A stretch of 64,000 nucleotides of DNA from Plasmodiophora brassicae (GCA_036867785.1 CP145427.1:496001-560000); one strand, 5' to 3'. Counted from the stretch's first letter, positions 11,634 to 64,000 are shown. Notes: generated by a model not told the origin, from the sequence alone. Numbers and translations are program-made.

Positions 11634-12989
11634 GTCGTGTCGTCGTCGGTGTCGTTCACGGAGAGTCAACGTACGACACGTAGTGGCCACTATAGTGTCT
11701 TCCGTCAAGCCTCGGGTGACACAATAGACGAATGCCGTTTATCCACGATCGATCCCGTACCCCGCTCTCCCACCAGCGGCGCACGTGATCGCGTGCTCTC
11801 GATCCCCGCATATCTCGACACATGAATCTCTGGCGCATGTGAATATCTGGAGGATGCTGATGCTGACGTAGGTGATGAGGAGCTAAATATAGGACCCCGG
11901 ACTACACGACGGCCCAGTACAGTGGCGACATTTCGGTCGTGCCGACCCCGGCGCCGACACGAATTAGCTTCTGGATGGTGCGACGCAGCGAACGAGACGG
12001 TGATGGCCCCTGCCACCGCTCTAACGCGTACTGCAGAGGCGTTTTTCGGTCCCAGTCCATGGCATTGACGGAGATGCCGTCAACGTCGAGCAGCAACTGG
12101 ATAACTTTGAACTGTTGATTCATCATGGCCAGGTGCAGAGGCGTCTGCTGTTGTGCGTCGCGTGCATCGACATCGATACCGTGAGCCTGGAGCAGCGACG
12201 AGACAACGTCATTGCGCCCACGAAAGGAGGCCCAGTGCAGTGCCGTCCGTCCCAGGTACCCTTGCGTATTGAGGCGCATGCCCGGGACACTCAGCAGGAA
12301 CTTGACAACGTCGGCCTCCCCGTGATACGCAGCCCATTGCAGCAACGTCATGCGTTCGTCCCAGTGCGGCTTTACGTCGTTAACGAATGCGACATTGCCT
12401 TTCCCGGTAAGCAGGCAATCGTGAAGCTTAGCGACGATCTTCATCTTAGCATGCGTGTTGGCGAGCTCCCGCAGACGGACCATGCCAGGAGCACTGTGGT
12501 AATAGTGTTCCTCTGGAACACTTTTACCGCGCGAACTTGCGATCGCGCTCCAGTCGTCGCTTCGTGTGCTGGCGGTCTCGTAGCCCAGATCGTCGCCCGA
12601 GCTCGACGTCGCCAGGACGGCAACATCGACGACGCCGACGATCAGAAGCAGGCAGGCGGCCGATGCCGTAGCCAAGGACGGGATGCGATTGCCGACTGAC
12701 ATTGTAGAGCGCACCTGGTGATGCTGGTGTTACAGCCGTTGGGATTACGGACGCGTTTGACCAGCCGTCGGCCGGGCGTGGCCCACGGCGTCCGGAAATT
12801 CCGCAGCCTGGGGCTGTATATGGCAAGAGCGCCCTAACGTTTCGATGCGGGGTGTTGTTCCAACTTCAGGACACCAGCGCAACGACCAATGAATCGTGTG
12901 CGGTCCCTGTGATGGAAAATCTCGATTGGGTGAGCAGGCAGGAAATTGTGTCGGCGGCGTCGGTTGCCTCCCTCGCGCACAGACACCAT

Positions 12990-13660
12990 TGACCGACCAC
13001 ACGCCAGCAGCGAAGGCGCTGGCCTGGTCGCCGCATACGCGGCACCTGCTTGCGAGCGGAGGTGGCACGAACGATCGACGCATCCACTTCTGTAACACGA
13101 AGACGGGCGCCTGCCTGAACAACGTCGATACGACCTCGCAGGTCAGCTGGTCCCCGATGCTGGCGGCGCCAGCGAATTCGTGACCGCCTGCCTGCGTCCT
13201 GTTAGGCCTGCGGGCTGGTGTGGAACCTGCACGAATACGAGATCCTGTCGGCCCATGGGTTCTCCAAGAATCAGCTGACACTCTGGAAGTATCCTTGCTT
13301 GTTACGCTTGCTGCCCCGCCCGACGTCAGGCATCTGACGGTTGGCGGTTCGTGCGTCACCGATCTGATTGGGCACTCGTCACGCGTCCTGCACATGACGC
13401 TGTCCCCGGATGGCACCACGGTCTGCTCTGCGGCCGCATACGTTTCTGGAAGGTGTTCGAACCGGTGCGAATTCGAAGCCAGCCACCGCAATTAGCAACC
13501 CGGTCCCGATCACCTCGCGCGCAAGCTGAGCGGCCTGAGCACCCTCTAACGGGTCACACGTTCCACGTTGACGGCAACACACACGCTAATACACCAGCAG
13601 CAAGTCGACAGCAATTCCACTACGACGCGGCTGAACGTGGTCCTGTCATGCATCGCCAGT
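12990..13660 (+). pseudogene. CDC20 3' fragment, copy 2 (intron-retaining, DNA-level duplication)
   Basis: Colinear with 1950-2643: [31 protein letters not shown], relics of the last two introns, indels, and the 3' UTR. Confidence 0.9.
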
Positions 13661-13726
13661 CAGCTGAAATATTGTACAGGCGCCGGGAAAGCTCAGAGGG
13701 CTTTAGTGCAGATGGCGATGGGCATC

Positions 13727-15040
13727 TCAGACGCAGTCGTCTCCGCAGCACAGCAATCTGCTGACACGCTTCTTGCTGGACGTACGGGAGACGTCGGGCG
13801 TGCTACCGCGGCTGCGCGTTGGCGTCTGCAGGACACGGTTCGCGGCCCACTGGTCGACCACTTTGGCGTGCCGCATCGCCTTGTGGAACCCGGGCGTCGT
13901 GTCGTCGAGTCCCTGGGCCTTGATGGGCAGCTCGGCGATCTCCACGTTGTGTAATCCCGGGGCCTTCAACGACGGGTCGCCGGCGTTTACGTCGACCCGG
14001 ATATCGTTGATCAGCATCTGCACAATACTCAGACGGTCATTCTGGACGGCCTCCAGCAACGGGTTGCCCGCGTTAACGTCGATCCCGTTGCAGCGGAGCA
14101 GCATTGCGACGATATCGGGGAGATCATTCCGGACGGCCACCAACAGCGGGTTGCCGGTCACCAGGTCGATTCCCGGGACCTTCAGCAGCATCTCGACAAT
14201 GTCCGGATGGTCCTTCTTGACGGCATTATAGAGCGGCGTCTTCTTGGACGGCCCGCCAAAGTTGACGTCGACGTGCATGCTGAGCAGCAGCTTGACGACG
14301 TCCTCGAGGCCGCGGTCGACGGCCCAGTACAGTGGCGACATTTCGGTCGTGCCGACCCCGGCGCCGACACGAATTAGCTTCTGGATGGTGCGACGCAGCG
14401 AACGAGACGGTGATGACCCCTGCCACCGCTCTAACGCGTACTGCAGAGGCGTTTTTCGGTCCCAGTCCATCGCATTGACATCAATGTTGCCGACCCGGAG
14501 CAGCAACCGGATGACGTGGAACTGTTCGAAAATCACGGCCAGGTGCAGAGGCGTCTTCTGATGCACCCCTTCCGCCACGTTGGCGTCAATTCCAGGCGCG
14601 CTGAGCAAGAACGGGACAATCATCACATCGCCTTTGTACGAGGCCCATTGCAGCAACGTCATATCTCCGTCCCATGCCGCAGTATTGAGGAATGTGACAT
14701 CGTCCCCCCCGGCCACAAGACGACGACGAAGTTCCTCGACGATCGCCAACCGTTCGCGGGTGTCTGCAACGTGCCGCAAACGGACAAGGCCAGGAACGAT
14801 ATCGAGCAACAACTCAAAGGAGTCCATCGGCACCTGGACACGAATGTCTGCAAGCACGCTCCAATCGTTAAAGGCCCACCGGGTGGAGCGTGACGCAGCG
14901 GGGTCGTCGCCAGCGTTACCGGGAACGTCCCAGACGTTCGCCATGACGGCAGTATCAAGGACACCAACGAGAAGTCCGGCGATGAGGACCGCGAGCGTCG
15001 CCGGCATTCCAGTAGCCTGAGAGCGATTGCTGATGGGCAT
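13727..15040 (-). CDS. Signal-peptide ankyrin-repeat protein B (437 aa, intact), effector-like
   Basis: N-terminal hydrophobic segment ATLAVLIAGLLVGVLDTAVMA, multiple ankyrin repeats (TLLQWAS, TPLHLAV, TPLQYAL, TPLYNAV, NPLLVAV), C-terminus KKRVSRLLCCGDDCV. Confidence 0.88.
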   Translation of the reverse strand: MPISNRSQATGMPATLAVLIAGLLVGVLDTAVMANVWDVPGNAGDDPAASRSTRWAFNDWSVLADIRVQVPMDSFELLLDIVPGLVRLRHVADTRERLAIVEELRRRLVAGGDDVTFLNTAAWDGDMTLLQWASYKGDVMIVPFLLSAPGIDANVAEGVHQKTPLHLAVIFEQFHVIRLLLRVGNIDVNAMDWDRKTPLQYALERWQGSSPSRSLRRTIQKLIRVGAGVGTTEMSPLYWAVDRGLEDVVKLLLSMHVDVNFGGPSKKTPLYNAVKKDHPDIVEMLLKVPGIDLVTGNPLLVAVRNDLPDIVAMLLRCNGIDVNAGNPLLEAVQNDRLSIVQMLINDIRVDVNAGDPSLKAPGLHNVEIAELPIKAQGLDDTTPGFHKAMRHAKVVDQWAANRVLQTPTRSRGSTPDVSRTSSKKRVSRLLCCGDDCV

Positions 15041-26648: not shown

Positions 26649-28294
26649 CTCCTGATCCTTCTCCTCCATGCCGTCCGGCCTTCCCGCATGCCGTACGGAC
26701 TCTCCCTGGTCTTAGGGCTGCCTCTCCTAGATGCTGTTCTTGGTATCACAGGCAGCAGATTCGCTACATGCGCGCTACATTATTTTGGTATTTTTCAATG
26801 GTGCATCGGCGCTACATTCATGTAGCCGCCCGACAACAGAGGTGCTACATGCCTGTGCCACGTTTGTAGCGTGTTGGCTACATTTGTGCTACATTCGATG
26901 TAGCGTGTTTGTAGCCTTTCGGCCACAAACATGCTACATGAATGTAGCTCAAATGTAGCACCCCGGGCACGTGCATGCTACATTAATGTAGCTCAAATGT
27001 AGCCTTTCGGACGCATACACGCTACATTCAATGTATCTGAGATGTAGCCGATTGGACACATTTTAGCTACAACACTTGTAGTCTGGATGTAGCCGTTCGG
27101 TAACAGACCGGCTACATTAATGTAGCCCAGCTGTAGCCCTTCTACTACCGTATTTCGTAGCGCATTCGAAGCACGAAACCCGTATCCATTGCGACGCATC
27201 GCACACCGCCGGAGCGTGAAACTGTATTACCGATTCCTCAGCTCTTGCTTGGCGCGCTTTATATGACGAGCCGTCATCTTAACGAGGTCGGGGTGCACCC
27301 AGGTGTAATCCTCATCATCATCATCATCATCGCACAGCTCGTCCCAAAGGTTCGCGATTGTAGTCAGTCTCGAGCCAATATCCCCAATCACTTTATCATC
27401 CATCCCATCCACGGCGTCGGCCATGCCATCACAGTGGAGCTAAATCCGTGCAGGCCCCCTTTTCCTCAGGACAGCAGGACCCTTCTCCTCAGGACAGCAG
27501 CATCTTGAGGTCGGGCACGAGACGCTAAATATAGAGCCCCGCTCTACACTGCCTTTCTCCGAACTCGTGCCCGGAACCAGCAACATCATCTTCGTGCCCG
27601 GCGAAGATAGGGAAGATGGCGAAGGGTAGTGTGAGACTCGGAATCACCCAATACTCACTAAAAACCACCTTGTAACCCCATGGGAAAAATCGGTGGAAAA
27701 TCCATTTACGGACACCCTTGCCACAGCCAGCCGAGATGGAGATACATGAACTGACGAAAACATCGGCGATGGGGCGCTCGACCCAGATGTGTGGAGCCCG
27801 GTCCATATACACCCGAAAAGTATCATTCACCTAGCTCAGCGGCCGACACAGATGCGTGGACCCCCAGCGCAACAGAATCTCGATAGTCAGAACGCCCTGA
27901 CCAGAGTCAAATCTGCGGTGACGAGTGACTTAACGGATGCTGCCGAACGTCCCGTGACACAACGATATTGATGAGGCCACCTGTGTGACTACCCATCGAG
28001 TAGCGTGATGGCCTCTCAGAGGAGCACCATAAACCGTGGTTGCATGATCGCATAACAACCAGGTTGACTGATTCCATGACTTGCATGCAAACCAGTTGCA
28101 ATGGTCCCAATGATTTGAGAACCGGGCCCGCAATTATTGAGGACCATGATCATGATCATCCTCGTATCGTCCAGTGCAGAACCGATACGGTTGCGTCGTC
28201 CTTCCGGTCCCGACGGTACTGAATAAGCGTGTTTGACGGTTGACTCCTGTACAACCACAAACCGTAAACACTGCACAGGCATTGTCATTCATAC

Positions 28295-33618: not shown

Positions 33619-33970
33619 GGCGCAGCGTCTCGACGTGGTGCGGGACGAAGTCAGACGTGTGGGATCAGACAGAGTGCGCACTGTAGTCAGTCTCGAGCCA
33701 ATATCCCCAATCACTTTATCATCCATCCCATCCACGGCGTCGGCCATGCCATCACAGTGGAGCTAAATCCGTGCAGGCCCCCTTTTCCTCAGGACAGCAG
33801 GACCCTTCTCCTCAGGACAGCAGCATCTTGAGGTCGGGCACGATACGCTAAATATAGAGCCCCGCTCTACACGATGAACGTGAATTTCTTTGAATCTGGA
33901 TTCTGCGCCACAATTGGGCCTTTTCGATTCTTACGACGCACCTGAGATCCCTCTTGGTGATGGCGTATCC

Positions 33971-34156
33971 TGTGCCGGCTCCAAGCTATAAGACAAGAAT
34001 AGCTGTGATCCGGCTGGCCGCCCTAAGAATGACGGACATGCACGAAGTCCGCACGGAGTCCGCACGGCGTCCGCACGGCGTCCGTGGGAGCTGCAGGTCG
34101 AGGACACAGACGACTACGTACACGGTTCGATAAACCATCACCGTTAGGACGTCACA
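33971..34156 (+). mobile_element. Solo LTR of the element 4 family
   Basis: Near-identical to 46078-46263. Ends TGTG...CACA with a 4-bp TSD atcc. Confidence 0.92.
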
Positions 34157-44200: not shown

Positions 44201-44629
44201 TCTCCTGCTCGTCCTGGAGTCCCAGCTCGTCCATCGCAATTGCCTGTCGTTCATGAAACGTGAAGCAGTTCCGGATTGAGACTGGGCCGCGTCGTTCTCG
44301 CTCCGGCAGGTACGCCTCCGCCTCCGACGTGATGCGACAGTAGTCCGTGTACTGCTCCTCCAACTTCTTCAGTGAGCTCGGGTCCAGCCCCTCCGCCATT
44401 GGCTGCTGCCCGGGCTTCAATCGTCGTGCCATAGTGCTTTGGATCTCGTCGATCGCGCTAAAACCGGTTTTGTAGATCGTGTATAGAGAACCTCAGCGTC
44501 CTCGCTCCCAGATCTCCTGATCCGTCTCCTCCATGCCGTCCGGCCTTCCCGCATGCCGTACGGACTCTCCCTGGTCTTAGGGCTGCCTCTCCTAGATGCT
44601 GTTCTTGGTATCTCTGGCTGCGACAGGGC

Positions 44630-46077
44630 TTTGTCCGCTTGGCGGAAAAGTTCCGATCTCGTTGAACCCTGCGCTCTCCGACGCGCTGTTGTTCTTCAAC
44701 TTCAGAGACTACGACAACATTCTCGAGATGGCGGCTCATCTTGAGTCGAAATACCCAATCGCCGCCATCAACGCTGGCGGTGATGCAAGGCCGGCACAAC
44801 CCCTGGCTTGCCACTATTGTCGCGAAGTTGGGCATTTTATTGCGTCCTGCCCGAAGAGGCCACCGTGCCCGCACTGTCGTAAGGTTGGCCACCGCTCATC
44901 GCTGTGTCCCGAGCGGTCCGGCAACCCTCTCCACGTCACTGATCTGTTCCTTATGACGTCTCCTTCAATACCGCATCTGTGGTACCGGTATGCTTTGTTA
45001 TCGGCTCACGCCGTGTCAACACTTTCGCCCTGTTAGATTGTGGTGCGACTTCCAACTTCATCGACTGGTCGTTCTGTCGTCACCACGAAATACCGATTCG
45101 TTCTAAATCGCGTGCCATTCCTCTTCGCGTCATCGACGGGCGACACCTGTCTCCAGTAACTCAAGAAACCGCCCCGCTACGTGCTACCGTCGACGGATGT
45201 TTCGACAGCGACGTCGTCCTGAACATGATCCACTCGCCTCAACACCCTGTCATTCTTGGGCTGCCTTGGTTGGCGGATACAAACCCAGATATCGATTGGC
45301 GTCAGCGCCGCCTACAGCGCCGCGGAGATACCCTCGTGGGGATGTCACGCCGTACAGAAGACGTCCATGAGTCTGGGTCCGTCGTCTCTTCGGCGGGACC
45401 ATTTGCAACAGTAAAGCGCGGGGATAGTCTCTCAGCTGGTGTCTCACCTCCTGCACGACGCGTTCCTGCGCCTGCGTGTGCCATCCCTTCAGCTGAATCA
45501 CTCGAAACGTTGCCGCTTACATCCGTGTTTGTCGACGGCAAGCTGGCTTCCGTAGCTAACGACGACCACCCGGAGTGCCACATTGCCAGTGCTGCCGTCG
45601 ACGACAGGCCGAGCCCTTCCGCTTTCAATTATGGTAGCATCCCGGGGGTCGCCGCCTTCAATGATACTGTTGCCCCCAGCCGCACCGAACTCTTATCATT
45701 GTCCCGTTCAGGCTCCGAGTCCACGCCCCCTATGTCCTCCTTCCGGAACTGGGGCCCCGTTCGACGCGGGGTGAGACGGTCTCTCCCGCCGCCCCCGCCG
45801 TCTCCCTCCAATGATGGCTTCCGGGACGGCCACAGCCTCAATCTTCTGATGTTCGCAACCTTTGTCGCCCTGACCTGGATCCTAGTTGGGTGGCCGTATT
45901 TTCCAATAGCACAGCTGTGTACGAGCGCCTCTGCGGAACCCCCGCCCTTGAATGCACCCGCCGAGTCCTTCTTTGCACCTTTTGCTACGCTAGAGGATGA
46001 CCAGGCCTCATCAACCTCGATCGCGTTTCTCAACCCCGATCTCATGTTCCTGGACGTCGTCGCACGTGCGTTTGCCC
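44630..46077 (+). pseudogene. Gag-protease fragment of a different gypsy lineage
   Basis: Two knuckles CHYCREVGHFIASC and CPHCRKVGHRSSLC, then ALLDCGATSNFID...VILGLPWL...NPDIDW in a shifted frame. No LTR of its own is visible. Confidence 0.75.
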
Positions 46078-49000
46078 TGTGCCGGCTCCAAGCTATAAGA
46101 CAAGAATAGCTGTGATCCGGCTGGCCGCCCTAAGAATGACGGACATGCACGAAGTCCGCACGGAGTCCGCACGGCGTCCGCACGGCGTCCGTGGGAGCTG
46201 CAGGTCGAGGACACAGACGACTACGCACACGGTTCGATAAACCATCACCGTTAGGACGTCAAAGAGATCTCTTGAACATCCTTTCGGGGAAGGTTTCAAA
46301 GAAGGACGCGATGGTGGCCACCGCGCAGGAGATGCTGTTGGAAGATGACGTCGACGATCTGTCCAACAAGGACGGAGCGTGCAAGGCTCAACGATCGTCC
46401 TGCAGATGAACAAGGCGCCGACCTTGAAGAGCATGGACCGCAAGGCCGTCACGACGTTCATGGCCGCGCTGAAGACGTACCGGAATCACTTCCGGGACGA
46501 TCCGAACGCCAAGGGCCAGATCCCGCGACTAGTGAAGAGTATGATCGACCCCGGTCTGCTCAGGGCGATCTGCACGTGGGAACTCGGCAAGGACGCCGAG
46601 AGGGTGACGGAGAGCGACCTGATGGACTGGATGAAGAGGCATCTGGAACAGGATCGCTCGACGGACGCGAACATCGACCGGGAGATGCGCAAGCTGGCGA
46701 TGAAGCTTACCATCACCACACCGGCGGCAAGGGTCGTGAACCTCGTGCAGCAGTACGAGGAATTGGTCGCGCGCAACGGGTGGCAGGACCTCTTCACGTC
46801 CCGCGAGGGACGGAAGAACCTGGTCAAGTACCTATTGGGTGCTGTGAGCCCATCCGGTTTGCAAGCGCTCATGCGGACCCTCGTCATGAAGCGCCAGACC
46901 GAGCTCCAGAAGGACCCGATGGAGTTCTATCGAGTCCTTAAGGAGCGTGCAGCATCGTATGAGGAGACGATGTTGTACGCGGAGCCGGGACGGGAGGACG
47001 GCAAGGGGAAGGGAAAGGTCAAACCCACCTCGAAGAAGCGAGGGGCGCAGACGGATGACGGAGGCGATGGAGGCCGGGACACGAAACGACACCGGAAGGA
47101 CCTGCGATGCTTCAATTGCGAGGAGGTTGGGCATCCAGCGTTTCGTTGCCCGAAGAAGCCTACAAAGAAACAGGTTGCAGACCTGCTGAAGGATCGCCGC
47201 AAGGTGCCAACGGGAAGGGATGGATCCCGTAGGGCCAGAGGGATTCAGGAATCTGATAAAGAGGACCTATCGGAGTACCCATGGATTCCAGTGGTAGGAA
47301 GGGTGTCAGAGGAGGCGCGGAGGACAGGGGGCCAAGTAGTCGTTCGTATTAACGGACATGAGGAAGACTACGTTGGGGTTCAGGACAGTGGAGCGACATC
47401 GGTTGATGTTCTGATGCCATTGACCATAGCGCGCGAGCTGATGGAAAGGGACCCATTGTTAACAATGGAGAAACTCCAGAAGCCGGAAACGTTCTGTTTG
47501 GTAGACAGAGAAACGAAGCACACAGCCTACCATCTGATGACACTGGATCTGGGACTGAAGACGACGGCAGGCGAACTGATCACTCGCCGGCGCCGATGCC
47601 TCGTATGGGACATTCCTGAAAAGGAAATTATCCTAGGTGAGAGGCTGCTTGACGACTTGGGTATCCACCCAAAGAAGGCCCTGGACGTACTCATTAAGAG
47701 CACGCCGATGAAGGGGAATGACGTCATGGATGAAGTGCACAATATGGCAAATGAGGTGCCACCTCTCTGGGAAGGGGAGGAAGAGGAAACAGAGGATGTG
47801 AGGATCGGGGCAGATTCCACAGACTCCCTGGAAAGGGAGATGGACGGGATGGTCGAGCGCGCATTGAGGAATGGCCTACCGCAGGCGATGGCAAAATCGC
47901 TGCGAAAGCTCGTCAAGAGGTACAGGGACGTTTGGCGTATGAGCGTTGGACCCGATGGTCCAGCCAGGGTTACACCATTTGTCACGGAGCTGAAACCAGA
48001 GGCGGAACCTTACAGGTGCCGAGCCAGAAAGTACAGTATGGAGGACAATGCTTTCATGGAGGAATTCGTTGCCCAATTGAAGAAGTACGGCCTCGTCGTT
48101 GAAAACTACAACGCGAAGTGGGCTTCACCGGTGGTGGTGGTGACGAAGCCAGGGGGCGGAAAGCGGTTCTGTGTTGATCTCAGAGCTGTTAATGCCAAAT
48201 GTGTCGCCGTGGCGTGGCCTATGCCACATCAGGAGGCGATACTGAGGAACCTGGCAGGCTCGAGGTTCTGGTTTAAGCTAGACGCGTTCAAAGGCTTCTG
48301 GATGATGCCGCTGGATGAAGCGTGTCAGGAGATCTTCTCCTTCATGACAGATAAGGGGGTGTATAAGCCAACGAGGTCGATGCAGGGGGGAATGAACTCC
48401 GCCCCTCAGTATCAAGGGAGGATGTTTGAGGTGTTCGGGGAACTGATGTTTCACAAACTAATCATATGGATCGATGATCTAATGGGGCATGCCCAGAGGG
48501 AGGATGATTGGTTCCGAACGTTGGAACGAACTCTGATGCTAGCCGAACGGCATAACATCAAGTTCAACGTGGAGAAGTGTGAGCTCTTCACGACAGAGGT
48601 TAGGTTCTGTGGGAGGATATTCACGCCAGAAGGGGTAAGGCACGATCCAGCGAGGATCGAAGCTTTGATGGCGATCCCACAGCCGAGGACAGCAAGGGAC
48701 TTACAACAATTCCTAATGGCAACTCAGTGGATGAGCAGGTCCATCCCTGAGTACAACAGGAAGGTACACCTGTTGCAGAGGATATATGAGGATGCGATGA
48801 GGGACCAACCTGGCAGGACGAAAGCCATTGCCAGGAGGGTGCGATTGTGCAAATATGGATGGTCACCCGAACATGCGCTGGCATTCGAGAAACTGAAGAC
48901 GGCAGTGGCGGACACGGTCCAACTAGCGTACCCGCGAAAGGACCGGATCCAATGCCTATTCTCGGATGCAAATGAGGTCAACAGCGCGGCGGTAGTCACA

Positions 49001-51304
49001 CAGATTCCGCCTGAGGATTTGGGTAAACCAGTGCATGGGCAGCGACATGAACCGCTGGGTTTCGTCGGACACAAGTTCGCGGGCCCAGAGCGGAACTGGT
49101 CCACGGTGGAGAAGGAAGGGTTCGCGATCAAGGATGGGATTGACAAACTGGACTATCTCGTTACAACCAACGAGCAGTTTCGTCTGTTCACCGATCATAA
49201 GAACCTCGTGAGGATATTCTCACCAACGGACGTGTCAAAGCCAACGGCGCAGAAACTGCAACGATGGGCACTGGACATACAGAGGGTCAACTACGTCATT
49301 GAACACATTGCGGGGGAGGACAATGTGTGGTCGGATCTGATGACGCGGTGGGGTGCACCGGACGGTGGACCTGATGACCAGCACCTAGAGGTACGCACGA
49401 TCAGGAGGATTACGCTTCAAGTTGAGGACGGATATCGGGTACGGCCGTTACAAAGGAAGGAATTCCAATGGCCGACCGTGGACGAAATCCGGAAGGGACA
49501 AGTGATCATACCAGACGAATGCAACGAGCTGAAGCTGCAGCTATGCGCTATTGCTCATGCGGGCGGAAACAATGGGCATCTAGGACTGAAGGCCTCGTTG
49601 AGGAAGTTGGGGGAGTTCTGCCATTGGGCACACTGCGATGAGGACATGAGGAAGTTCTGCAACGCGTGTTTGAACTGTCTACCGACAAGGGGCGGGGTTA
49701 GGATTCCCAGGCCACTGGGAACAGCTGTTCATGGTGTAAGGCCGAATCAGGTGATTCACTTGGATTGGCTGTACATGATGCCGGCTGAGAAGGGTGGAAG
49801 GCATGATCTGCAATGGAACCTGATAATCAGGGACGATCTGTCTGGCATGGTCAAGATTACTCCTGACCATATCCCCAATTCAGAAACCACTGTAGAGGCA
49901 CTGCTCGAATGGAGGGCTATCTTCGGAACGTTTGAGTTGATGGTGTCAGACATGGCGTCTTGCTTTTTGGCAAACGTTGTGAAGGAACTGGCGCGTCGAT
50001 GCGGATTTGCTCATCACCCGACTGTTGCCTATGGGCATTACAGTAATGGATCGATCGAGGTGATCAACAGGAACTACTTGCAACTAGTCAGAGCACTTCT
50101 GTCTGAATTGCAGTGGGACAAACACGACTGGCCATGGTTGAACCACAACATTGAACACACGATCAATCACAGGTCGCAGGCGCGTACCAACGGGAATGCG
50201 CCGGTGACAGTGATGATGGGACGTCAACCAGACAACCCGCTGAAGCAAGTGTTCAAGGGGCCAGGGGATGAGAAGTATGGGGAAGCTACACTCTCAAAGG
50301 AGCATATTCAGGAGCTAGTCATGCAACTGCAGACGTCGCTGAATGAAATGCACAAGGGAGCAGTGAAGCAATCGAGAAAAATCCGAGCCGTACACAGGAA
50401 GAGGAGCGACGCGTACCGACGAGCAACTGCACCGAACTTTCAGATCAGTGACTATGTGCTTATTGGATTGCCTGAACCGGGTAAGGTTCCGGGCAAGAAG
50501 CTCTTTATGAAGTGGCGGGGCCTATATCAAATAACTGATAGCCACGAGAACTACACCTACGAGGTGAGGAATATGTTCAATGAGACGGACACGCGAACCG
50601 TTCACGGGGACCGCGTTCGCCTCTATGAGCATGGCAAACTGAATGCCACTGAGGAATTGAAGCGACAGATGGATTATGACAATGAGCGTTTCGCCATTGA
50701 GGTCTTCAAGGACTGCAGGCATAGTCCAGAGACAGGGGAATTGGAATTGTTGATCGGATGGAAGGGCTTCTCTGAGGCTGAGGATTCATGGGAGCCAATC
50801 TGCAGGTTGGCGAAGGATGTACCAACGATGGTGAAGACCCATGCAGCCAGGATGAGGAAGGAGAAACACTACCTTGCTGATGAGGTTAAGGAGTTACTTA
50901 AGGCGGAAGGAGTCCAGTAGGCTAGTCATGCTTTTTTCCCGGATGCGCGCTGGGTTATTTTAATGCCGATGGCCATGTGACGACAGAAGCCAAAACTGTG
51001 TCCTACGAAGATTGAGACTTAATTATGTTAATTAGACTATATTAAGGAGGAGACATGATTACGATACACCACCACTGAAGACACCTGCAAGGAGGAGCAT
51101 TTCTTTGAAGGAGGGGAATGTGCCGGCTCCAAGCTATAAGACAAGAATAGCTGTGATCCGGCTGGCCGCCCTAAGAATGACGGACATGCACGAAGTCCGC
51201 ACGGAGTCCGCACGGCGTCGGCACGGCGTCCGTGGGAGCTGCAGGTCGAGGACACAGACGACTACGCACACGGTTCGATAAACCATCACCGTTAGGACGT
51301 CAAA
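46078..51304 (+). mobile_element. Chromodomain Ty3/gypsy element 4
   Basis: 186-bp LTRs at 46078-46263 and 51119-51304, one mismatch seen. PPT gaaggaggggaa at about 51107-51118. The flanks do not form a TSD. Confidence 0.93.
46406..50920 (+). CDS. gag-pol polyprotein of element 4 (true start may be the ATG at 46311 with a frameshift)
   Basis: CFNCEEVGHPAFRC, QDSGA, IWIDDLM, LFSDAN, HLDWL integrase, LIGWKGFSEAEDSWEP chromodomain. Confidence 0.88.
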   Translation: MNKAPTLKSMDRKAVTTFMAALKTYRNHFRDDPNAKGQIPRLVKSMIDPGLLRAICTWELGKDAERVTESDLMDWMKRHLEQDRSTDANIDREMRKLAMKLTITTPAARVVNLVQQYEELVARNGWQDLFTSREGRKNLVKYLLGAVSPSGLQALMRTLVMKRQTELQKDPMEFYRVLKERAASYEETMLYAEPGREDGKGKGKVKPTSKKRGAQTDDGGDGGRDTKRHRKDLRCFNCEEVGHPAFRCPKKPTKKQVADLLKDRRKVPTGRDGSRRARGIQESDKEDLSEYPWIPVVGRVSEEARRTGGQVVVRINGHEEDYVGVQDSGATSVDVLMPLTIARELMERDPLLTMEKLQKPETFCLVDRETKHTAYHLMTLDLGLKTTAGELITRRRRCLVWDIPEKEIILGERLLDDLGIHPKKALDVLIKSTPMKGNDVMDEVHNMANEVPPLWEGEEEETEDVRIGADSTDSLEREMDGMVERALRNGLPQAMAKSLRKLVKRYRDVWRMSVGPDGPARVTPFVTELKPEAEPYRCRARKYSMEDNAFMEEFVAQLKKYGLVVENYNAKWASPVVVVTKPGGGKRFCVDLRAVNAKCVAVAWPMPHQEAILRNLAGSRFWFKLDAFKGFWMMPLDEACQEIFSFMTDKGVYKPTRSMQGGMNSAPQYQGRMFEVFGELMFHKLIIWIDDLMGHAQREDDWFRTLERTLMLAERHNIKFNVEKCELFTTEVRFCGRIFTPEGVRHDPARIEALMAIPQPRTARDLQQFLMATQWMSRSIPEYNRKVHLLQRIYEDAMRDQPGRTKAIARRVRLCKYGWSPEHALAFEKLKTAVADTVQLAYPRKDRIQCLFSDANEVNSAAVVTQIPPEDLGKPVHGQRHEPLGFVGHKFAGPERNWSTVEKEGFAIKDGIDKLDYLVTTNEQFRLFTDHKNLVRIFSPTDVSKPTAQKLQRWALDIQRVNYVIEHIAGEDNVWSDLMTRWGAPDGGPDDQHLEVRTIRRITLQVEDGYRVRPLQRKEFQWPTVDEIRKGQVIIPDECNELKLQLCAIAHAGGNNGHLGLKASLRKLGEFCHWAHCDEDMRKFCNACLNCLPTRGGVRIPRPLGTAVHGVRPNQVIHLDWLYMMPAEKGGRHDLQWNLIIRDDLSGMVKITPDHIPNSETTVEALLEWRAIFGTFELMVSDMASCFLANVVKELARRCGFAHHPTVAYGHYSNGSIEVINRNYLQLVRALLSELQWDKHDWPWLNHNIEHTINHRSQARTNGNAPVTVMMGRQPDNPLKQVFKGPGDEKYGEATLSKEHIQELVMQLQTSLNEMHKGAVKQSRKIRAVHRKRSDAYRRATAPNFQISDYVLIGLPEPGKVPGKKLFMKWRGLYQITDSHENYTYEVRNMFNETDTRTVHGDRVRLYEHGKLNATEELKRQMDYDNERFAIEVFKDCRHSPETGELELLIGWKGFSEAEDSWEPICRLAKDVPTMVKTHAARMRKEKHYLADEVKELLKAEGVQ

Positions 51305-52222
51305 GACGTGCCACACCTTGTCACGAAGCAAGCCAGGTTCAATCACCAGTTGAGCGTCTTCAACTTTGGCGTCTATTCCGCTCATACCGACCGTCACTTT
51401 TTCCACCTGTGGTCCGAGTGGGATGGCGCCTGCGTGTCAGACGAGACGATCACCTGCCTGCTCGCCGTTATTGCTAACCAGAGCGACTCACTCGGCCGGG
51501 GCATTCTCAACCTGATCTGCGACTCATGTGGCGGGCAGAACAAGAATCAGTTCTTGCTCGCATTCGCCGCCGAGCTGTCACGCCCTGGCAGCGCTTTCTA
51601 CCGGTTCGCTGAAGTCAACATCAAATTCCCGGAGGTCGGCCATACGTTCTTGCCGAATGACCGCATATTCGGCGTCATAAGTCAGCACGTGAAGAAGCAC
51701 AACTTCAACGAACCGCGCGAGCTGTTGCCACTGATCCAGCAGTCGTTCGATCCTCGCCATCCGCAACATGCAGTGTGGATGGACCGCCTCGATTTCAAGA
51801 ACTACGGCGCCTACATGGCGAGCACGTATAAGATTCTTGGCGCTGCTGCCCTCGGTGGCGATCCGCATGATGGCGGCGCAGAGAAACTTCTTCTACGCGA
51901 CGAAGCGAAATGGATGAACTTCGGCCGGCACCGCCAGTGGTCGCACCCGGGCGAAATGTGGGTGCGATCATGCCTGCAAGCTGGCGCGACGTGGAAGAAA
52001 TACAGGATATGTCATCGTGCACCCGCCGACATGCCGGACTTAATCGTCAAGTATCCTCAGCAGTTGACTTTGGATGCTGCCAAGATGCAGTCTTTATGGG
52101 AGTTGTCGGCGTCCATTCCCGTCCAGTACAGGCCCCTGTATCCGGCGCCTGATCAGGGCGACTTGGCTGTCGTTCGCGATGCCGTCGCCAGCAAGAAGGC
52201 GGCCAAACGCCGGCCCAAGTAG
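51305..52222 (+). pseudogene. 3' part of a Sola-type DDD transposase, truncated at the element 4 LTR
   Basis: QLSVFNFGV...LWSE...ICDSCGGQNKN...GHTFLPNDRIFG motif pattern. Confidence 0.7.
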
Positions 52223-52599
52223 TAGTAAAACTTCAAACGCGATTTCTGAGCGATCCAGGAAATCCAGCCTAGTTCTATTTTCGGAGTCGTTTACTTTTTC
52301 CACGGGCACCGAGACATACGAAAAGCGCGCCGGACTTGCGGTGGCCTCCTGGGTGCAGCTGCTTGCCAACCGATGTCGAGAGGCGCGCCCCCAGCGGCAG
52401 AGAAGCGGATCAATGTCACCGCTGGGTGGACCTTCGACAAAATCAGGTCCTGGGAAATTGTCGACGAAGATGAATTCGTCACTGACGTCGTCGGCGACCG
52501 CTATATATGTTCGCTGGGTGAAAGGTGTGCTTGCTCGGCTCGACCAAACGCTGAAGGCAGACCGAGTGTCTTACTCACGGGGACAGCTCGTGGTCACCC

Positions 52600-55500
52600 T
52601 GATGATGCGGGCTCTGCCATTACTCGTTCGATATGCCAACAGCAGCATGCCTGAGAATATCGCCCACACGACTGTTGAGGAGTTCGTGAGATTCATCGGT
52701 ACCACTCTCTGCCTATCAGGAGTGAAGTTGTCGCCAGACAAGGCCTTTAGGGTTCTTGTGCACGACCTGAAGCTCCAGGTTATGGACCGCACTCGTTACC
52801 TCGAGATTCTGTGCTCCATCCGTGGGTACCCGCAAGTCGGTCGAACCGGCTCGTGGGATGCAGGCTGGAACACGACAGAGGTCACACATCAGTTCCAACC
52901 CATGCTCGACGAGCTGTTTGAAGAGTCACGCCACATATTTGTGGACCTGCATAACAGCTGGTTGGTGATTGACGACGAGCTCGTTGGGCGCAGGGCTAAA
53001 ACTGTTCCTGTAAAAACTGTGACCGGGCGCAAAGCAGGCAAGGAAGGTCAGATCGTCGACGTTGTCGCTGATACTTTCTCGAGGGTGGTGCTTGCGTCGC
53101 AACTGCGAGGGCGTAAAGCTCGTGTAGCAGATACATGCAAGTCTCTGTTGGCCAAGGTGAGTCGCAGCATCCGCCTTTCAATTTTCTTGCGCACTTACTC
53201 ACCCGCTTGACAGGTCAAGCAGACAGTGTATGGCTCAGTTCCTGGGTGTGGACTTACTCAGGATCGTGGGTACACGTCACCCGACGTCGCGCCATCGTGC
53301 GTACGCGATGGGTTTAACGTGGCATTCATAATGTCAGAACACTTGCTGAACTACCGCCCGTTCTGCTCAGAGTCCTTGTTCCGTCGTAACAACAAGGTTG
53401 TCGAATTCTTCGAGAGCTTAGACGGCGGTGGCGAATATCGGGATCCTTTCTCTGCCGGGGTTCTCGATCTGGATCGGACGGATTCTGACGTGGTGTTTGA
53501 CGATGATGACAACCTGGAGAATGGATCTGATTCTGATGACCCAGCAGATGTGGGAATCATTGATGAGATGGTTCAACAATCGCGTCAGGAGGAGCGTCCG
53601 AATCATGCCGCCTTCGTAATTCCCGATGCACCGCTACTCGGACCGGATGTTTGGTCGGCACATCTGGATGTCGAAGCAGATGGCAAGAGCAAGGCACGAA
53701 CCTTGCATTCCGTTATAATCAGAAGCCATGGCGATGATTCGACGTGCAAAACGCTCCGCTTTTATGTGTCGTGGCCCAACATGCTGGGCCACCTTCACAA
53801 GTGGATGGCTGTTCCTGTACCCACATCTCGCATAGCTCCAGGCACTCTGTATTACCCCGGAGTTGAGCCATGTCCTGCCCGGCAGCACATCGAAAAGGTT
53901 GTTGCAGGTCGTTTTCGACCGTGGACTGCTTCTCAGCGAACCCAGGACTGGTTCGTCTCGCGGGGAATGTCATGCACTGGGACTATGTCTCACGAGGTAG
54001 CTGTTCGCAATCCTGTCTGTCGAATCTTGCTCTTGAGAGACCGACGCTCTAATTGTCCGCCACGACTTTCGAAGGAGGAGTGGATCAGGGATTTCTGCAA
54101 GTCATGGTATACCTGGAAAAAGGCGACCGTCGCCATGAAACGTGGGACGAAGAATGAACCGTCCGTTTTGAATGCCCTATCACACCTGGAGTTCGTGCTA
54201 TGCGTATGCGAGGTTGGTATGATTCGTCACCATCAACACAGCTGGCTCGCTGCGTCTCCCGATGGTGTCGCCCTGCTTCGCTTGGATGCCACACTTGATC
54301 CGTTCCCTGCCGTTGTTGAGATCAAGACGGCTGTAGCCGCGTCCGTTGTTACTGAGGCCCTTTCGATTCGTGAGGCATTTGGCGAAGTCGTTCATGTTAT
54401 CGTCGGGGATGACAAATGGTTCGACGTCGTACCGACTGAATACCGTGCTCAGATTATCCAACAAATGATTGTTGCGAACCTCCTCTCGTTCGTTTTCGTA
54501 CGTGCTTGTGACGGCAAATCTGTGTATGTCGTGGTTGGGCACATGAACGCCAACGATGCTCATGCCTACCTTGCTGAACTTGTCAATGAGTTGAAGCCCC
54601 TGCTCCAGTGGGCCTACGGTACTTCCTCTAGGCCGTCTTCTGCTCGAGTGCCATCCTGGGTCCCTAGCGACATATCTGCGATCCTGTCCTCGCACTACCG
54701 TTTCTGGAGGATGGTATACGACCGCATTAGCGCTAACGGGCCCATGAAAAGCCCGTGTTGCTATTCAAGACGCGGCGCAGACGTTGTACAGCAAGACGAA
54801 GGGTGGTGTGGATGGTGCAACGGATGCTGTCGCCGACATCCAGTTCCCATCCAACAACTTGTGTTTCGAGAGGAAGCTGGTGCTGCGAAGTCTTTATCAG
54901 GTCGTAAGCAATGCATGCGTACTGTCACGGTTGTACCGGGCAGGCGGGGCGCTAGTGGCCGATGACCATCGCCACGACGGAGGTTCCTCTGGCCTTCCGT
55001 CACACCAACTGACACGGCGACGCTCTTTCGCCCAGTGTCGAGCCTCGGTCAGCCGCATCGAATGTTTGTTTGCGAGGTTTCGTCTTCGAGGCGGGCAAGG
55101 AGCTTCTGCAGATCGACGTCGTCAACGCACGGGCTGGCGACATTCAACCTGCTGTCGACACAAATGCTCTTCAGAGCGTCGGATCCCGATTGCTGACAGA
55201 CGCCCAGGTGAAGGACCTTCAGGGCCGCATCCGCTGGAAGGGCAAGGAACGTCGTCAGTTCTTCAACGGCGAAGGAAAGTTACTGCGCCTGTCAATCGGT
55301 AATCACCGTCTTGTCAGGGTTACCGAGTGTCCAACACGGTCGGGTGCGATGAAAACCGTAGCCGGTGGACGTCAATGCACGTTGTGTACCAGACGCGTGC
55401 GGACGATGTGCCCGACTTGTTGGCAGCATCTCTGCGATGCTCACGACAGAATTTTCCATGAATGCGATGTGTTGCCTGACGATCGTATTCTGTGTCGGCG

Positions 55501-57275: not shown

Positions 57276-57439
57276 CACTTTATTGTTTCGTAAGAGCAAG
57301 ACCTGCTTTCTACTGATACCGCATGCTGACCGCAGCAGCTTAGGCGCGACGAACGTTACAAGTCTTGGCGGTCGAAAAAGAAGGCGGGCCGATACAAACG
57401 TCGTCCTTACAAGGACGACATTGAGGCGCTGTTGACTGC

Positions 57440-57600
57440 CTGCGAATTCCACAAGGCAGTCTGCCTCATTCAGAGGCCGGGCGACGTCCTTTATATGCCG
57501 TCTTGCATGGTACACGCGGTCTTCACCGCTCATCTCCCCGGAACTTTAACCGCCAAGCAGTTCTGCCTGGCGGGCGGCTGCCTCTTCTGCACCGAGGAAG
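57440..57600 (+). pseudogene. JmjC/cupin-like C-terminal fragment
   Basis: CLIQRPGDVLYMPSCMVHAVFT fits the JmjC QxPGDxxxxPxxxxHxV strand motif. Confidence 0.55.
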
Positions 57601-60443: not shown

Positions 60444-61197
60444 TATAAAGGACGTCGCCCGGCCTCTGAATGAGGCAGACTGCCTTGTGGAATTCGCAGG
60501 CAGTCAACAGCGCCTCAATGTCGTCCTTGTAAGGACGACGTTTGTATCGGCCCGCCTTCTTTTTCGACCGCCAAGACTTGTAACGTTCGTCGCGCCTAAG
60601 CTGCTGCGGTCAGCATGCGGTATCAGTAGAAGGCAGGTCTTGCTCTTACGAAACAATAGACCATATTTTCAGCGCAACGTTACCGTCGTTCAAATGCAAT
60701 GCAAGGAAACGACTAAGTTCCTTGTGACAAGTCTACAGCAGTGGGTCTTAGCGACAGAGATCAGCGTCTTCACGAAGACTCGAACGCATTTACAGGGTCA
60801 CATTCGCACCAGTCTGGACCATGAACGCCATTCTGGACCAATGGATCCCGTCAGCGAACATCGACGAGTGGTTGGGAATTAACCGATGCGAAAATTCGTC
60901 CATCATGTTGACAGACGGATGATGGCCAATGAAAAGACCACTAAGAGGACGAAAGTTGAGTTCATGCATTGTCGCGATAAAGAAGGAACGACGTCGTACC
61001 GCAGCCGCTCTTCAGCGACGTAGTCCTCGATACCTTGGCGCACGTGGCTCTGAACAGTATCGCGGTAGGTTCGTACCGTATCGCGGGCGCGAATGAGCCG
61101 GCGATGACAGACCCCTACACCTTTACGATTCGTTTTCCAGGAGGGTTGACGAGCTGAAGCTGTCGTCAGCCGACAGAGACACCACCAAAGAGTAGTC

Positions 61198-61356
61198 GAT
61201 GACTGGACCGGCATTCGGCGCCGAATTCGACGCCGAATGCCGGTCCAGTCATCCGGATGTCGTAGTTTGCAGCACACCGCTCGCTATAGCCGACGTAAGG
61301 ATAGATGGGCGCAGACCAGGGCATTCGAATGCCCTGATCTGCGCCCATCTATCCTT
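61198..61356. repeat. Two adjacent loopless palindromes, 56 bp and 60 bp
   Basis: 61198-61253 centred on GAATTC and 61297-61356 centred on TTCGAA, one mismatched pair each. Confidence 0.9.
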
Positions 61357-61532
61357 GTCGATGCATTCGACAACATCTGGCAACGTCCTCGATGACGAGG
61401 CCGACGACGACGCCATGTGCGAAATGCCGCGCAGTCCGTGGCACGAAGGCTGTGAAGTTGTTGCAGACTCACCGCAAGGGAGCCCGTCTGCACATGTCCA
61501 GGTAGTGCCCGTTATCGCTTTCACCGGTTAGG

Positions 61533-64000
61533 TGTAGCAAACGCTTATACTGATAGTTGGTCAGTTCTTTTCTTCGGTGTTCAGGTCGTTCTTCAGCGGT
61601 AGGTGCGGGGCGTTGGAGAAGGCCGTTTGTTCATCCAGAGTACCAGTACTCAGATGATGCTGCTCAGATGCTGCTGCCACCCGGTCACATGATCATGACC
61701 GTACTCGACCCCGCAGCGGCCCTTGCTGTGACGATCCTGTCCAAATACATCAGTTCGTTATATCACCAGGCGCCGACTCTTGCGACCGACCGCCCCCGTA
61801 GTGGGCAGCGGCGGCGTTAGCACAGAAGCTTCTTGCGCAAAGAGCCCCAAGCAAACGAACTCACTTAATGGCAGGAGGTGGCCGCAGAGCGCCCGTTCGT
61901 CTACAGATGGAGGACGACGCCAGGACCAACTCCGATGCCGAGGCCAAGGAGCATGAATCGTCGACAGATGACGAAATCGATCGAGGGCTTCAGTCAACAA
62001 ACCTGCACGGTAAGAGCCCGATCTTTATGCCTTTGAAACCGCCCATCCTACGTACCCTGAGCCTTACGGCCAAGGACGGAATTAACGATTTCCTCAAGAA
62101 ATATAGGAAACACGTCGAGATCGTTAACGAGCGCCGACTGATCTACAAGGAGGATATTCATCCGCCAACGGTGAAGTCATGCATTACCGAGGACGTCCTC
62201 AGAGGGATGTCGAAATATCGCCTACGTCAACCCGCCAGCACGATCACGGATGGCGACATCATGAGCTACTTGAGGTCAGTCCAACGCAGGGAGGCTGATG
62301 TCGAGAGTTCGACAGACATCAAGGCGCTTCTCACGAAGACAGTGGTCATGAACCTGTCAATCAAGAGTATTGAGGAACGTGTCACGTCTTTCTTCGCCAA
62401 GTTCGATGAGCTAATCGACGACTATGGGCTACAAGACACATACGCCAAAGGAACGAAAGGAACCAAGCGCAAGATCAAGGTATTACGCGGAGGTATCCGT
62501 CCCACTGACCTTGCGGTTCTAGTCGAACGCGCGATCGAGTTCGGAGGGTGCAGGGACGCTGAGAAGGACGAGCTCAAATTCTTCGACCTCGTCGACCGTC
62601 TTGCCAAAGAGCAGGACAAACACTTCCGGCTGCAAGCTGAGAAGAAGAAGTCTCCAGCGCAGACCATGTCCCCACCTGCAGGTAAGAAAGGTAAGGACGT
62701 TGTTGCTCCGAATAGGAATGGCGGCAAGCATCCGACAAATCCGATCGGACTGAAGACAGCTCAATCGTCCACATCGCAAACGAAAGACGAATCGAGGGAC
62801 ATCCCCGAGCACATCCGAAAACGTTTCGAAGGTAAGGATCCTCCAAAGGCAGGTTGCCTAATCTGCAAGGAGCAGCACTGGGTCCAAGTGTGCCCGAAGG
62901 CAACTCAAGGAGAACGCAAAGCTGCCATTGAAAAGTTCCAGAAAGAGCGCAAAGAGAAGGAGGAGAGTAAGGGCAACGCAGACACGGCAAAGCGCATGGG
63001 CCCGCCGTCGCCGTCAACACCGTCCCCTATGAGACTTCGCTTCCAGAACTCGCTCGACCTTCCATTCGAAGCCGATAGTGGTGCGACGAAGACCGTCATT
63101 TCGCAGTCGCAACTGCTACGGATTCAAGCCATCCAGCATGTCCCAGTCAAAGTTTTCGACCATCCAACGGAGGCGAAACTTGCGACGATCGGGGCTACGA
63201 CAACAATTGTCGCCACAGCGATCGTGGACATCACCATTGTCCCACCTTCCCATGGCAAACCTGCACATCTACGCGGGCGGGAAATCAACGTATGTCGCGA
63301 AGACCTATCTGATGATATTGTCCTTTTAGGAGCCCCGGAACTGGACGCGTTGGGTATCAATCCAGCTACACAACTGAAGGAGATGTTAATCGAGGCAAAT
63401 GGTCCTATCATCATCGAAGCGGATCCGACCCCGGAACGTCACGCCCCAGGTGGTCAAGGGATCACGATGAGAGCGGTAAGACACCCGGAGGTAAGTGGAA
63501 CAACTCGCGATCATGAGCCCCAATTGGACACCAATGATCCGGGTGACGACTATGATGTCGAAATCGGAGAACACTCCGATACAGACGTGGACAGGGCAAT
63601 AGACCGGATGATACAACGTGCAACTGACTCCGGTTTCCCTAACGATCAAGTCCCGCGTCTACGCACAACTGTCAATCGACACAAAGACATATGGCGAACG
63701 AAGCTTGGCCGTGATCCACCTGCGAAAGTAAGTCCACTGAAACTACACTTCAAAGCAGATGCTCGTCCTGTTCGTTGCCGAACACGAAGGTATACCCTCG
63801 AACATCAAAAATTCATGGATGATCACGTAGGAACCTTGGCGGAAAACGATTTTGTGTACCGCAATCCGCACAGCAGGTACGCGTCGCCGTGTCTGGTCGT
63901 CGACAAGAAGGACACGGAGGTTCGCGGCCATCGGCTGACCGTCGACATCAATGAAGCCGTCAACAAACAGACCGAACGCATTGCATGGCCGATGCCTCAC
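61533..64000 (+). mobile_element. 5' part of Ty3/gypsy element 5 (runs off the window)
   Basis: Putative 5' LTR 61533-61824 with imperfect inverted ends tgtagcaaacgc / gcgttagcaca. The second LTR is outside the window. Confidence 0.75.
61868..64000 (+). CDS. gag-pol of element 5, partial and apparently open to the window end
   Basis: ATG at 61868; knuckle CLICKEQHWVQVC; protease EADSGAT; RT start YASPCLVV...HRLTVDI...AWPMPH. Confidence 0.82.
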   Translation, partial: MAGGGRRAPVRLQMEDDARTNSDAEAKEHESSTDDEIDRGLQSTNLHGKSPIFMPLKPPILRTLSLTAKDGINDFLKKYRKHVEIVNERRLIYKEDIHPPTVKSCITEDVLRGMSKYRLRQPASTITDGDIMSYLRSVQRREADVESSTDIKALLTKTVVMNLSIKSIEERVTSFFAKFDELIDDYGLQDTYAKGTKGTKRKIKVLRGGIRPTDLAVLVERAIEFGGCRDAEKDELKFFDLVDRLAKEQDKHFRLQAEKKKSPAQTMSPPAGKKGKDVVAPNRNGGKHPTNPIGLKTAQSSTSQTKDESRDIPEHIRKRFEGKDPPKAGCLICKEQHWVQVCPKATQGERKAAIEKFQKERKEKEESKGNADTAKRMGPPSPSTPSPMRLRFQNSLDLPFEADSGATKTVISQSQLLRIQAIQHVPVKVFDHPTEAKLATIGATTTIVATAIVDITIVPPSHGKPAHLRGREINVCREDLSDDIVLLGAPELDALGINPATQLKEMLIEANGPIIIEADPTPERHAPGGQGITMRAVRHPEVSGTTRDHEPQLDTNDPGDDYDVEIGEHSDTDVDRAIDRMIQRATDSGFPNDQVPRLRTTVNRHKDIWRTKLGRDPPAKVSPLKLHFKADARPVRCRTRRYTLEHQKFMDDHVGTLAENDFVYRNPHSRYASPCLVVDKKDTEVRGHRLTVDINEAVNKQTERIAWPMPH

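Follow-up and report, generated by a model that had tools for sequence, protein, structure and literature searches.

The window analysed here, a stretch of 64,000 nt from Plasmodiophora brassicae (GCA_036867785.1 CP145427.1:496001-560000), holds five long terminal repeat (LTR) retroelements, E1 to E5, each of which carries a perfect palindrome at the position of the primer site, where the 5' LTR meets the leader. Self-comparison and six-frame searches identify all five as Ty3/gypsy elements, as the original prediction had it, with E1 supplying the domains and E2 to E5 matching E1 by tblastn. E1 is intact, with two LTRs of 216 nt each that are 100% identical and a single frame of 1636 amino acids encoding protease (PR), reverse transcriptase (RT), RNase H, integrase and a chromodomain. 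The Pfam matches along E1 run in the order Asp protease (weak), RVT_1, RT_RNaseH, Integrase_H2C2, rve and Chromo, and among solved relatives Ty3 Gag-Pol ranks best (E 2.5e-50). The E2 protein is 63-76% identical to that of E1 at the amino acid level and its frame is broken into three pieces, with Chromo in the last; its LTRs are 99.5% identical. E4 is intact, with a frame of 1523 amino acids and a WIDD motif. This domain order, together with the chromodomain, places the window elements in the chromovirus branch of Ty3/gypsy (Metaviridae). The LTRs have inverted termini (TGTAG...CTACA in E2, TGTAG...CTATA in E1), and a GGGAAAAGGCAG-type polypurine tract precedes the 3' LTR. ARAGORN found no tRNA genes in the window.

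The five palindromes are all present at the coordinates first reported for them (Table 1). Read in element sense, with a slash at the LTR end, the junctions are ...CTATA/GTGGCCACTA in E1, ...CTACA/GTGCGCACT in E2, ...CTACA/AAACCGGTTTT in E3, ...GTCA/AAGAGATCTCTT in E4 and ...CACA/GAAGCTTCT in E5. The palindrome is not present in the 3' LTRs. In the window elements the gag ATG lies only 35-63 nt past the LTR, and the palindrome is therefore the main feature of a very short leader. Measured from the palindrome itself, and with the relatives described below included, the distance to the gag ATG is 6-60 nt. In E5, a second perfect palindrome of 8 nt, TTGCGCAA (61834-61841), directly follows the first.

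Table 1. Positions of the five gypsy elements, their palindromes and associated target sites, counted from the first nucleotide of the window
Feature	Position (nt)	Strand	Details
E1	5848-11906	minus	intact chromovirus-type gypsy element; LTRs 5848-6063 and 11691-11906
E1 target duplication CGAC	5844-5847 and 11907-11910		4 bp
Paralogous empty target site CGAC	14317-14320		...GGTCGACGGCCC...; fixes the exact ends of E1
E1 palindrome, TA-GTGGCCAC-TA (TAGTGGCCACTA)	11681-11692	minus	overlaps the 5' LTR end by its first 2 nt
E2	27359-33871	minus	LTRs 27359-27548 and 33682-33871; target duplication CGAT
E2 palindrome, A-GTGCGCAC-T (AGTGCGCACT)	33673-33682	minus	
E3	37280-44628 (start about)	minus	degenerate kin of E1 and E2
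E3 LTR remnants	3' LTR 37280-37341; 5' LTR 44471-44628		both truncated; 3' remnant adjoins polypurine tract
E3 palindrome, A-AAACCGGTTT-T (AAAACCGGTTTT)	44460-44471	minus	LTR end from CTACA homology
E4	46078-51306	plus	LTRs 46078-46261(5) and 51119-51302(6); no target duplication
E4 palindrome, AAGAGATCTCTT	46262-46273	plus	midpoint of an imperfect inverted repeat, about 50 nt long, that U5 end and leader form
E5	starts before 61824, leaves the window	plus	single LTR; matches the gag-PR-RT start of the other elements
E5 palindrome, A-GAAGCTTC-T (AGAAGCTTCT)	61824-61833	plus	about 35 nt before the gag ATG

The LTR ends against which these positions are measured are fixed to differing degrees. 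In element sense the E1 LTR runs TGTAG...CACTATA and is followed by GTGGCCAC; the element sits in one copy of a duplicated segment, and the other copy carries the empty site. The end of the E2 LTR is fixed by the LTR pair and the CGAT duplication (...CTACA, then GTGCGCAC). The E4 LTR pair stays identical for 4 nt beyond CA, and a solo LTR of the E4 family (33971-34154; 99% identical, duplication ATCC), 100 nt from the E2 5' LTR, ends ...CACA; we therefore place the E4 end somewhere in 46261-46265. The AAGA after the E4 3' LTR (51303-51306) equals the first four palindrome bases (46262-46265), and either the LTR ends 2-4 nt past CA or an unprocessed end of the complementary DNA (cDNA) was captured. 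In E3, where both LTRs are truncated, the end is taken from CTACA homology with E1 and E2, and in E5 from a single LTR, as had been allowed from the outset. Independent evidence thus fixes the LTR end in E1 and E2; in E4 it is ambiguous over 4 nt, and in E3 and E5 it is deduced.

Palindromes with at least five mirror pairs occur in the window background at 0.00178 per position. Allowing six centre positions, centred 3-8 nt past the LTR end, chance would place one at the junction with p of about 0.011 per element. For the three elements that have an LTR pair the combined p is 1.2e-6, and it is 1.4e-10 when all five are taken, although E1, E2 and E3 are kin and hence not fully independent. A TGG within 0-5 nt of the LTR, the mark of a site for a tRNA 3' end, is present in one of the five elements, E1, which has TGGCCAC from 1 nt after the LTR; E2 has TGCGCA where E1 has TGGCCA. 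The claim that four of the five elements lack TGG therefore stands, and a conventional tRNA 3'-end site is absent from those four.

The same arrangement extends to independent relatives. An RT-RNase H alignment scanned against metagenome contigs gave 80 loci (L-numbers below), 25-57% identical to E1, and among them about ten further families have the same geometry with other palindromes. RT-RNase H identity among the palindrome carriers goes down to about 33-40%. In four families the LTR end was verified by a separate LTR copy, either on another contig or elsewhere in the same contig, and these copies stop exactly on the first one or two palindrome bases (L003 ...GCTACA/AAGAATTCTTT; L007 ...GCTATA/AAGAATTCTTTA; L050 ...GCCACA/TTGATCAATG; L076 ...GTACA/TTGATCAAT). 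L052, which has its own LTR pair (93% alike), reads ...GGAACA/GTGATCAAT, one mismatch from the palindrome of its relatives. Counted together with the window, the palindrome starts 0-2 nt inside the U5 end at seven of eight independently fixed junctions (E1, E2, E4, L003, L007, L050 and L076), L052 being the exception. Further junctions were recognised via the palindrome upstream of gag: L001 CCACA/AAGAATTCTTT, L005 GCTACA/AAGATATCTTT, L016 CCACA/GCTAGCGCTAGCT, L028 CGACA/CAGAACGTTCTGT, L008 with copies in L004, L006 and L009 GCTCTA/AAGAATTCTTTA, and a decayed TTGATAAAT in L057. Among the aligned metagenome junctions TGG occurs in L003 only, after the palindrome and overlapping the gag start. 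Scans of IMG/VR with the E1 protein and with the RT-RNase H alignment returned no relatives, and a look-up in the ESM Atlas gave generic RT clusters from several eukaryote phyla, which did not place the clade.

For an unbiased test, the gag ATG was called automatically and the 96 nt upstream of it were scored for a palindrome of at least five pairs. Such a palindrome was found at 8 of 13 loci against a background of 0.104 (p = 1e-5), and at 7 of 11 once duplicate contigs were removed (p = 3e-5). The misses were L016 (open reading frame mis-called), L020 (four pairs), L045 and L046 (distant, three pairs) and L057 (decayed). The L016 and L005 rows were kept in the count as called; for L005 the automatic call chose TTACAATTGTAA, 76 nt upstream, with an arm length equal to that of the junction palindrome AAAGATATCTTT. 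At 25% identity, L045 and L046 have no palindrome of at least five pairs at the called gag start. L046 has TTGATCAA about 110 nt before the gag ATG, at no relatable LTR end.

When 17 distinct junctions were aligned on the palindrome centre, mirror pairs 1-5 were complementary in 83 of 85 cells (17, 16, 17, 16 and 17 of 17), with 4, 3, 3, 3 and 2 pair types, respectively. Complementarity falls to 11/17 at pair 6 and 6/17 at pair 7, and pairs 8-9 are at chance level (2/17 and 4/17). A free MAFFT alignment of the junctions anchors on the LTR end, where the final LTR A is invariant; this A is the first or second palindrome base in 15 of the 17 distinct junctions, E4 being ambiguous. The original prediction had described five different palindromes. 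Their sequences do differ, but they are not unrelated: on an RT tree of 17 rows, which excludes E5, L052 and L080 (matches too short), the palindromes track phylogeny. One group carries TTGATCAA (L050, L057, L076), a second is rich in G+C (E1, E2, E3, L016), and a third has the form AGA-[centre]-TCT, with the centre AT (L001, L003, L007, L008), TA (L005, nested among the AT rows), GATC (E4) or ACGT (L028). The E5 centre, AGCT, also fits this frame, which E4 and E5 have in common with six metagenome families. Related families differ by symmetric, compensatory changes. The central pair is swapped from GC to CG between E1 GTGGCCAC and E2 GTGCGCAC, and AAGATATCTT, nested within the AAGAATTCTT group on the tree, is likewise a symmetric difference. 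The earlier claim that sequence changes while position and self-complementarity are kept thus extends to independent relatives, which supports the palindromes as a real, selected feature. The observation itself is real, highly non-random and clade-wide.

What the site pairs with was examined in the elements themselves. No complement of at least 6 nt to the first 20 post-LTR bases was found in the LTRs of E1 to E5 (0/5), and each palindrome core occurs once per element, with no second copy in any window element. This agrees with the earlier remark that the LTRs hold no copy of the palindrome and, because the complement of the site is not present in the LTRs, argues against Tf1-type priming as that remark had done. 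Among the relatives, L007 has a 6-mer only, and the match in L052 is a 7-mer near the LTR start; chance could account for either. A downstream partner with at most two mismatches within 80 nt was found at none of 14 junctions, where the best partners had 3-5 mismatches of 10, no better than shuffles; a downstream hairpin partner of the kind known from fungal GalEa copia elements is thereby ruled out. In addition, before gag there is neither room for nor conservation of a primer site separate from the palindrome, and families do not share the bases that follow it. Predicted homodimer energies of the sites range from -14 to -22 kcal/mol, and a local fold-back of the palindrome would have only 3-5 bp. 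A longer hairpin of U5 and leader was also considered. In E4 this stem has a minimum free energy of -21.2, and 0 of 300 flank shuffles are as low. An extended symmetric stem is clear at 4 of 15 junctions (E1, E4, L007 and L008, strongest in E4) and missing at 6 of 15 (E2, E5, L003, L050, L076 and L080), which rules it out as a universal or defining feature.

Several other features were noted along the window. E1 sequence is present, at half or more of its words, in 18 public runs with three organism codes and plant-metagenome labels. In contigs of run X11 (guessed to be RNA), 54, 59 and 73 nt of E1 pol are skipped at 7961-8016, 8171-8231 and 8531-8605; the skips have GT..AG ends on the plus strand, antisense to pol, and suggest a spliced antisense transcript with short introns. 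The duplicated segment around E1 (1950-2642/12990-13660 and 5129-5847/13498-14320; 75-95% identity) has WD40-like and ankyrin-repeat coding, and E1 occupies one copy only. E3 bears two foreign LTR insertions. A tiny LTR pair in its 3' region (37392-38328; 196-nt LTRs, 100% identical, about 545 nt apart) probably lies on the minus strand, its 3' LTR preceded by a GGAGGGGGCG tract, and the sequence after its 5' LTR, ATTAACAGTCG..., is neither a palindrome nor a TGG site. A solo LTR of the tiny-pair family (40160-40351; 92% identical, 5-bp duplication) breaks the E3 integrase. Inverted TGTAGC/GCTACA motifs abound in two stretches, 26750-27130 and 37150-37280, with palindromes of 16-18 nt such as GGCTACATTAATGTAGCC among them; each stretch adjoins an E3-family LTR fragment, and 26649-26747 is 99% identical to 44514-44612. 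A sixth retroelement fragment (44700-46077, plus strand), with CCHC zinc knuckles and an RVP_2 protease, adjoins the truncated E3 5' LTR and is cut off by the E4 insertion. Directly downstream of E4 (51296-54965) lie open reading frames with DUF7869, a PiggyBac-like DDE_Tnp_1_7 and a YqaJ-like domain. Inverted repeats of 215 nt at 57281-57495 and 60444-60658 (99.5% identical, 3 kb apart, with open reading frames between them that have no Pfam match) are possibly a DNA transposon. Lastly, positions 1-414 hold three tandem copies of a 138-nt unit at 73-88% identity.

First-strand priming in LTR retroelements has two known answers, a host tRNA or a Tf1-type fold-back of the transcript 5' end. The integrated LTR end, and with it the U5 end, is set by where the 3' end of the primer anneals, give or take trimming by integrase. 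Because the LTR ends where minus-strand synthesis began, the primer 3' end must pair with the palindrome in these elements. The primer for such a site would itself read as the palindrome, a sequence that the element RNA carries by definition. It is implausible that at least ten different host RNAs would have palindromic 3' ends, and one host RNA 3' end cannot match all of the sites. On sequence grounds, we would give roughly even odds to the reading in which minus-strand synthesis in this chromovirus clade starts at the palindrome, as its primer-binding site, with the element's own RNA instead of a host tRNA as primer.

Such priming might proceed as follows. Two packaged genomic RNAs would pair via their identical self-complementary site, forming a duplex of 10-14 bp that would also link the dimer; the alternative at this step would be a weak local fold-back. 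RNase H would then cut one strand at the palindrome's 3' edge, much as in Tf1, and leave a 3'-OH paired to the last U5 base or bases of the partner. Extension of this 3'-OH would copy U5-R as strong-stop DNA, and copying back of the RNA primer would regenerate the palindrome, by which the site would be inherited. The occurrence of one palindrome across several families of a subclade fits priming by the element's own RNA, because any single change breaks two pairs. More tentatively, and with less than even confidence, we suggest that a deep chromovirus clade primes in trans: the partner genomic RNA would pair at the palindromic site and be cleaved by RNase H of the element itself, dimerisation and priming would be one event, the centre would act as a family code that lets only like RNAs co-prime, and the arrangement would have arisen independently in fungal GalEa copia elements.

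Other explanations account for parts of these data. A symmetric DNA site is typical of dimeric proteins, and the palindrome could act at the DNA level as a binding or processing site for an integrase, host factor or nuclease, on the cDNA end or the provirus. The outer arms AGA...TCT, conserved across one subclade while the centre varies, are in keeping with this, and the four palindrome-start bases after the E4 3' LTR, in an element without a target duplication, hint at unusual end processing. However, at least ten sequences keep their symmetry by compensatory change, which nucleic-acid pairing fits better, and a palindrome missing on the 3' LTR side is not part of both cDNA ends; we consider a protein site quite improbable. 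Alternatively, the palindrome could serve only as a dimer-initiation or packaging signal, like the retroviral dimer-initiation signal (DIS) or PBS-pal, with a host RNA such as a tRNA fragment or other small RNA priming on overlapping or adjacent bases. The predicted homodimer energies and the flanks that extend the symmetry in E1, E4, L007 and L008 favour such a signal, and retroviral leader palindromes mediate RNA dimerisation, including inside the primer sites of mouse mammary tumour virus (MMTV) and human immunodeficiency virus type 2 (HIV-2), according to a review of dimerisation (PMC5874298). The review places the retroviral DIS in hairpin loops downstream of the tRNA site (PMC5874298), whereas the chromovirus clade has no separate site. 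Moreover, an LTR end that falls on the palindrome requires the primer 3' end to pair with palindrome bases, and the post-palindrome sequence, which is not conserved between families, leaves only 6-8 nt before gag in L008 and L003. Dimerisation alone is thus an unlikely account, although one to be taken seriously.

The remaining alternatives fare less well. Conventional sites for host tRNA 3' ends or internal tRNA segments, with the palindromy incidental, would be in line with the TGGCCAC lying 1 nt after the E1 LTR and with half-tRNA priming known in copia lineages, as given in one survey (PMC6317226). This explanation is disfavoured by the scarcity of TGG, in one of five window elements and in L003 only among the aligned metagenome junctions, by its replacement in E2, a close kin of E1, and by the near-complete complementarity of pairs 1-5 over 17 junctions, which is unexpected for tRNA-derived sequence; we judge it highly unlikely. 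Intramolecular self-priming of the Tf1/sushi type, in which the transcript 5' end folds back onto the site, is suggested by the nature of the elements, chromoviruses like Tf1 without tRNA sites and with short sites adjoining the LTR. The absence of an LTR complement of at least 6 nt from all five window elements, and the chance-compatible matches in L007 and L052, make it very improbable. Finally, chance, or LTR ends chosen to fit, might be invoked for E3 and E5, whose ends are deduced, and for E4, whose end is ambiguous, but the ends of E1, E2, L003, L007, L050 and L076 are independently fixed and the p-values range from 1e-5 to 1e-13, so we give this possibility almost no credence.

Several points nevertheless weigh against priming by the element's own RNA at the palindrome. 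The sequences show the position, self-complementarity and covariation of the palindrome and the lack of another partner sequence, whereas the priming at this site, the cut and the inter-molecular geometry are our inference; no primer, cut or cDNA intermediate was seen. To our knowledge, an RNA-RNA cut of this kind has been demonstrated only for Tf1. The TGGCCA one base after the E1 LTR might be a tRNA site in that element, and tRNA-type sites were judged by their TGG. The junctions of L001, L005, L008, L016 and L028 were chosen for a palindrome near gag and are therefore not unbiased. Within subclades the palindrome sequence is kept while the flanks diverge (AAGAATTCTT in four families, TTGATCAA in three), and a conserved palindrome is also expected from a shared trans-acting partner. 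In contigs of the four public runs that cross it, the E1 palindrome is unchanged and a strand-switch joint is absent, a weak negative because contigs drop rare forms and cannot show RNA starts or rare cDNA forms. Taken together, priming on a partner RNA or a fold-back is the best available reading, although unproven.

A site that is complementary only to itself, that keeps its position across families and that changes by compensation points to a third solution to first-strand priming, in which a partner RNA provides the primer. If true, this would explain the unexplained hairpin site of GalEa, tie genome dimerisation directly to initiation, and free the elements from host tRNA and from silencing based on tRNA fragments. 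Annotation tools that seek tRNA-type sites will score such elements as having no primer site.

In Tf1/sushi elements, the transcript begins, within the LTR, with about 11 nt complementary to the primer site, and the primer is presumed to be element RNA freed by RNase H. Like them, the elements studied here are chromodomain gypsy elements with a short site adjoining the LTR and no tRNA site (four of the five window elements are without TGG). Unlike in Tf1/sushi, the site is complementary only to itself, and a complement at the transcript start was not found in the LTRs of E1 to E5. Neumann et al. 2019 predict self-priming for Tcn1 and for Tf1/sushi chromoviruses (PMC6317226), and these clades provide a precedent for tRNA-independent priming in related chromoviruses. 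The paper also describes half-tRNA or internal-tRNA priming in copia, Osser and Bianca lineages (PMC6317226), whose sites likewise lack the TGG of a tRNA 3' end; in contrast to the sites here, they lack palindromy and correspond to an internal stretch of tRNA that is conserved. Retroviral leaders provide another comparison, as they contain short perfect palindromes, and the dimerisation review places one within the primer site of MMTV (PBS-pal) and of HIV-2, with the main DIS in a downstream hairpin loop (PMC5874298). In that account the MMTV and HIV-2 sites are complementary to tRNA and the palindrome is a by-product, whereas here nothing but the palindrome makes up the site, and it differs from family to family.

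The closest precedent is found in fungal copia elements of the GalEa group, where the palindrome spans the last LTR base. Donnart et al. 2017 (PMC5445492) describe 9 bp that follow the 5' LTR and become palindromic once the final LTR A is included, with a complementary second sequence, CHSeq2, 12-41 nt downstream; the two form a hairpin termed the 'Conserved Hairpin Site'. Two sequences cover 85% of the families, no U5 complement was found there, and according to the authors none of the known priming models fits (PMC5445492). The original prediction had left open whether the feature has been described. The literature searched, which covered few subscription journals, yielded no account of a palindromic primer site for gypsy elements, but the feature is not wholly new, as the GalEa palindrome with its final LTR A has been published (PMC5445492). 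Judged against the GalEa account, the elements share the lack of a tRNA-type site and a post-LTR sequence that is palindromic when the final LTR A is counted. They differ from these ascomycete copia elements in being gypsy chromoviruses, in having no CHSeq2-like partner (0/14) and in carrying at least ten palindromes of 10-14 nt. The palindromes of E1 to E5 and their relatives are thus a gypsy-side variant of a published, unexplained copia feature.

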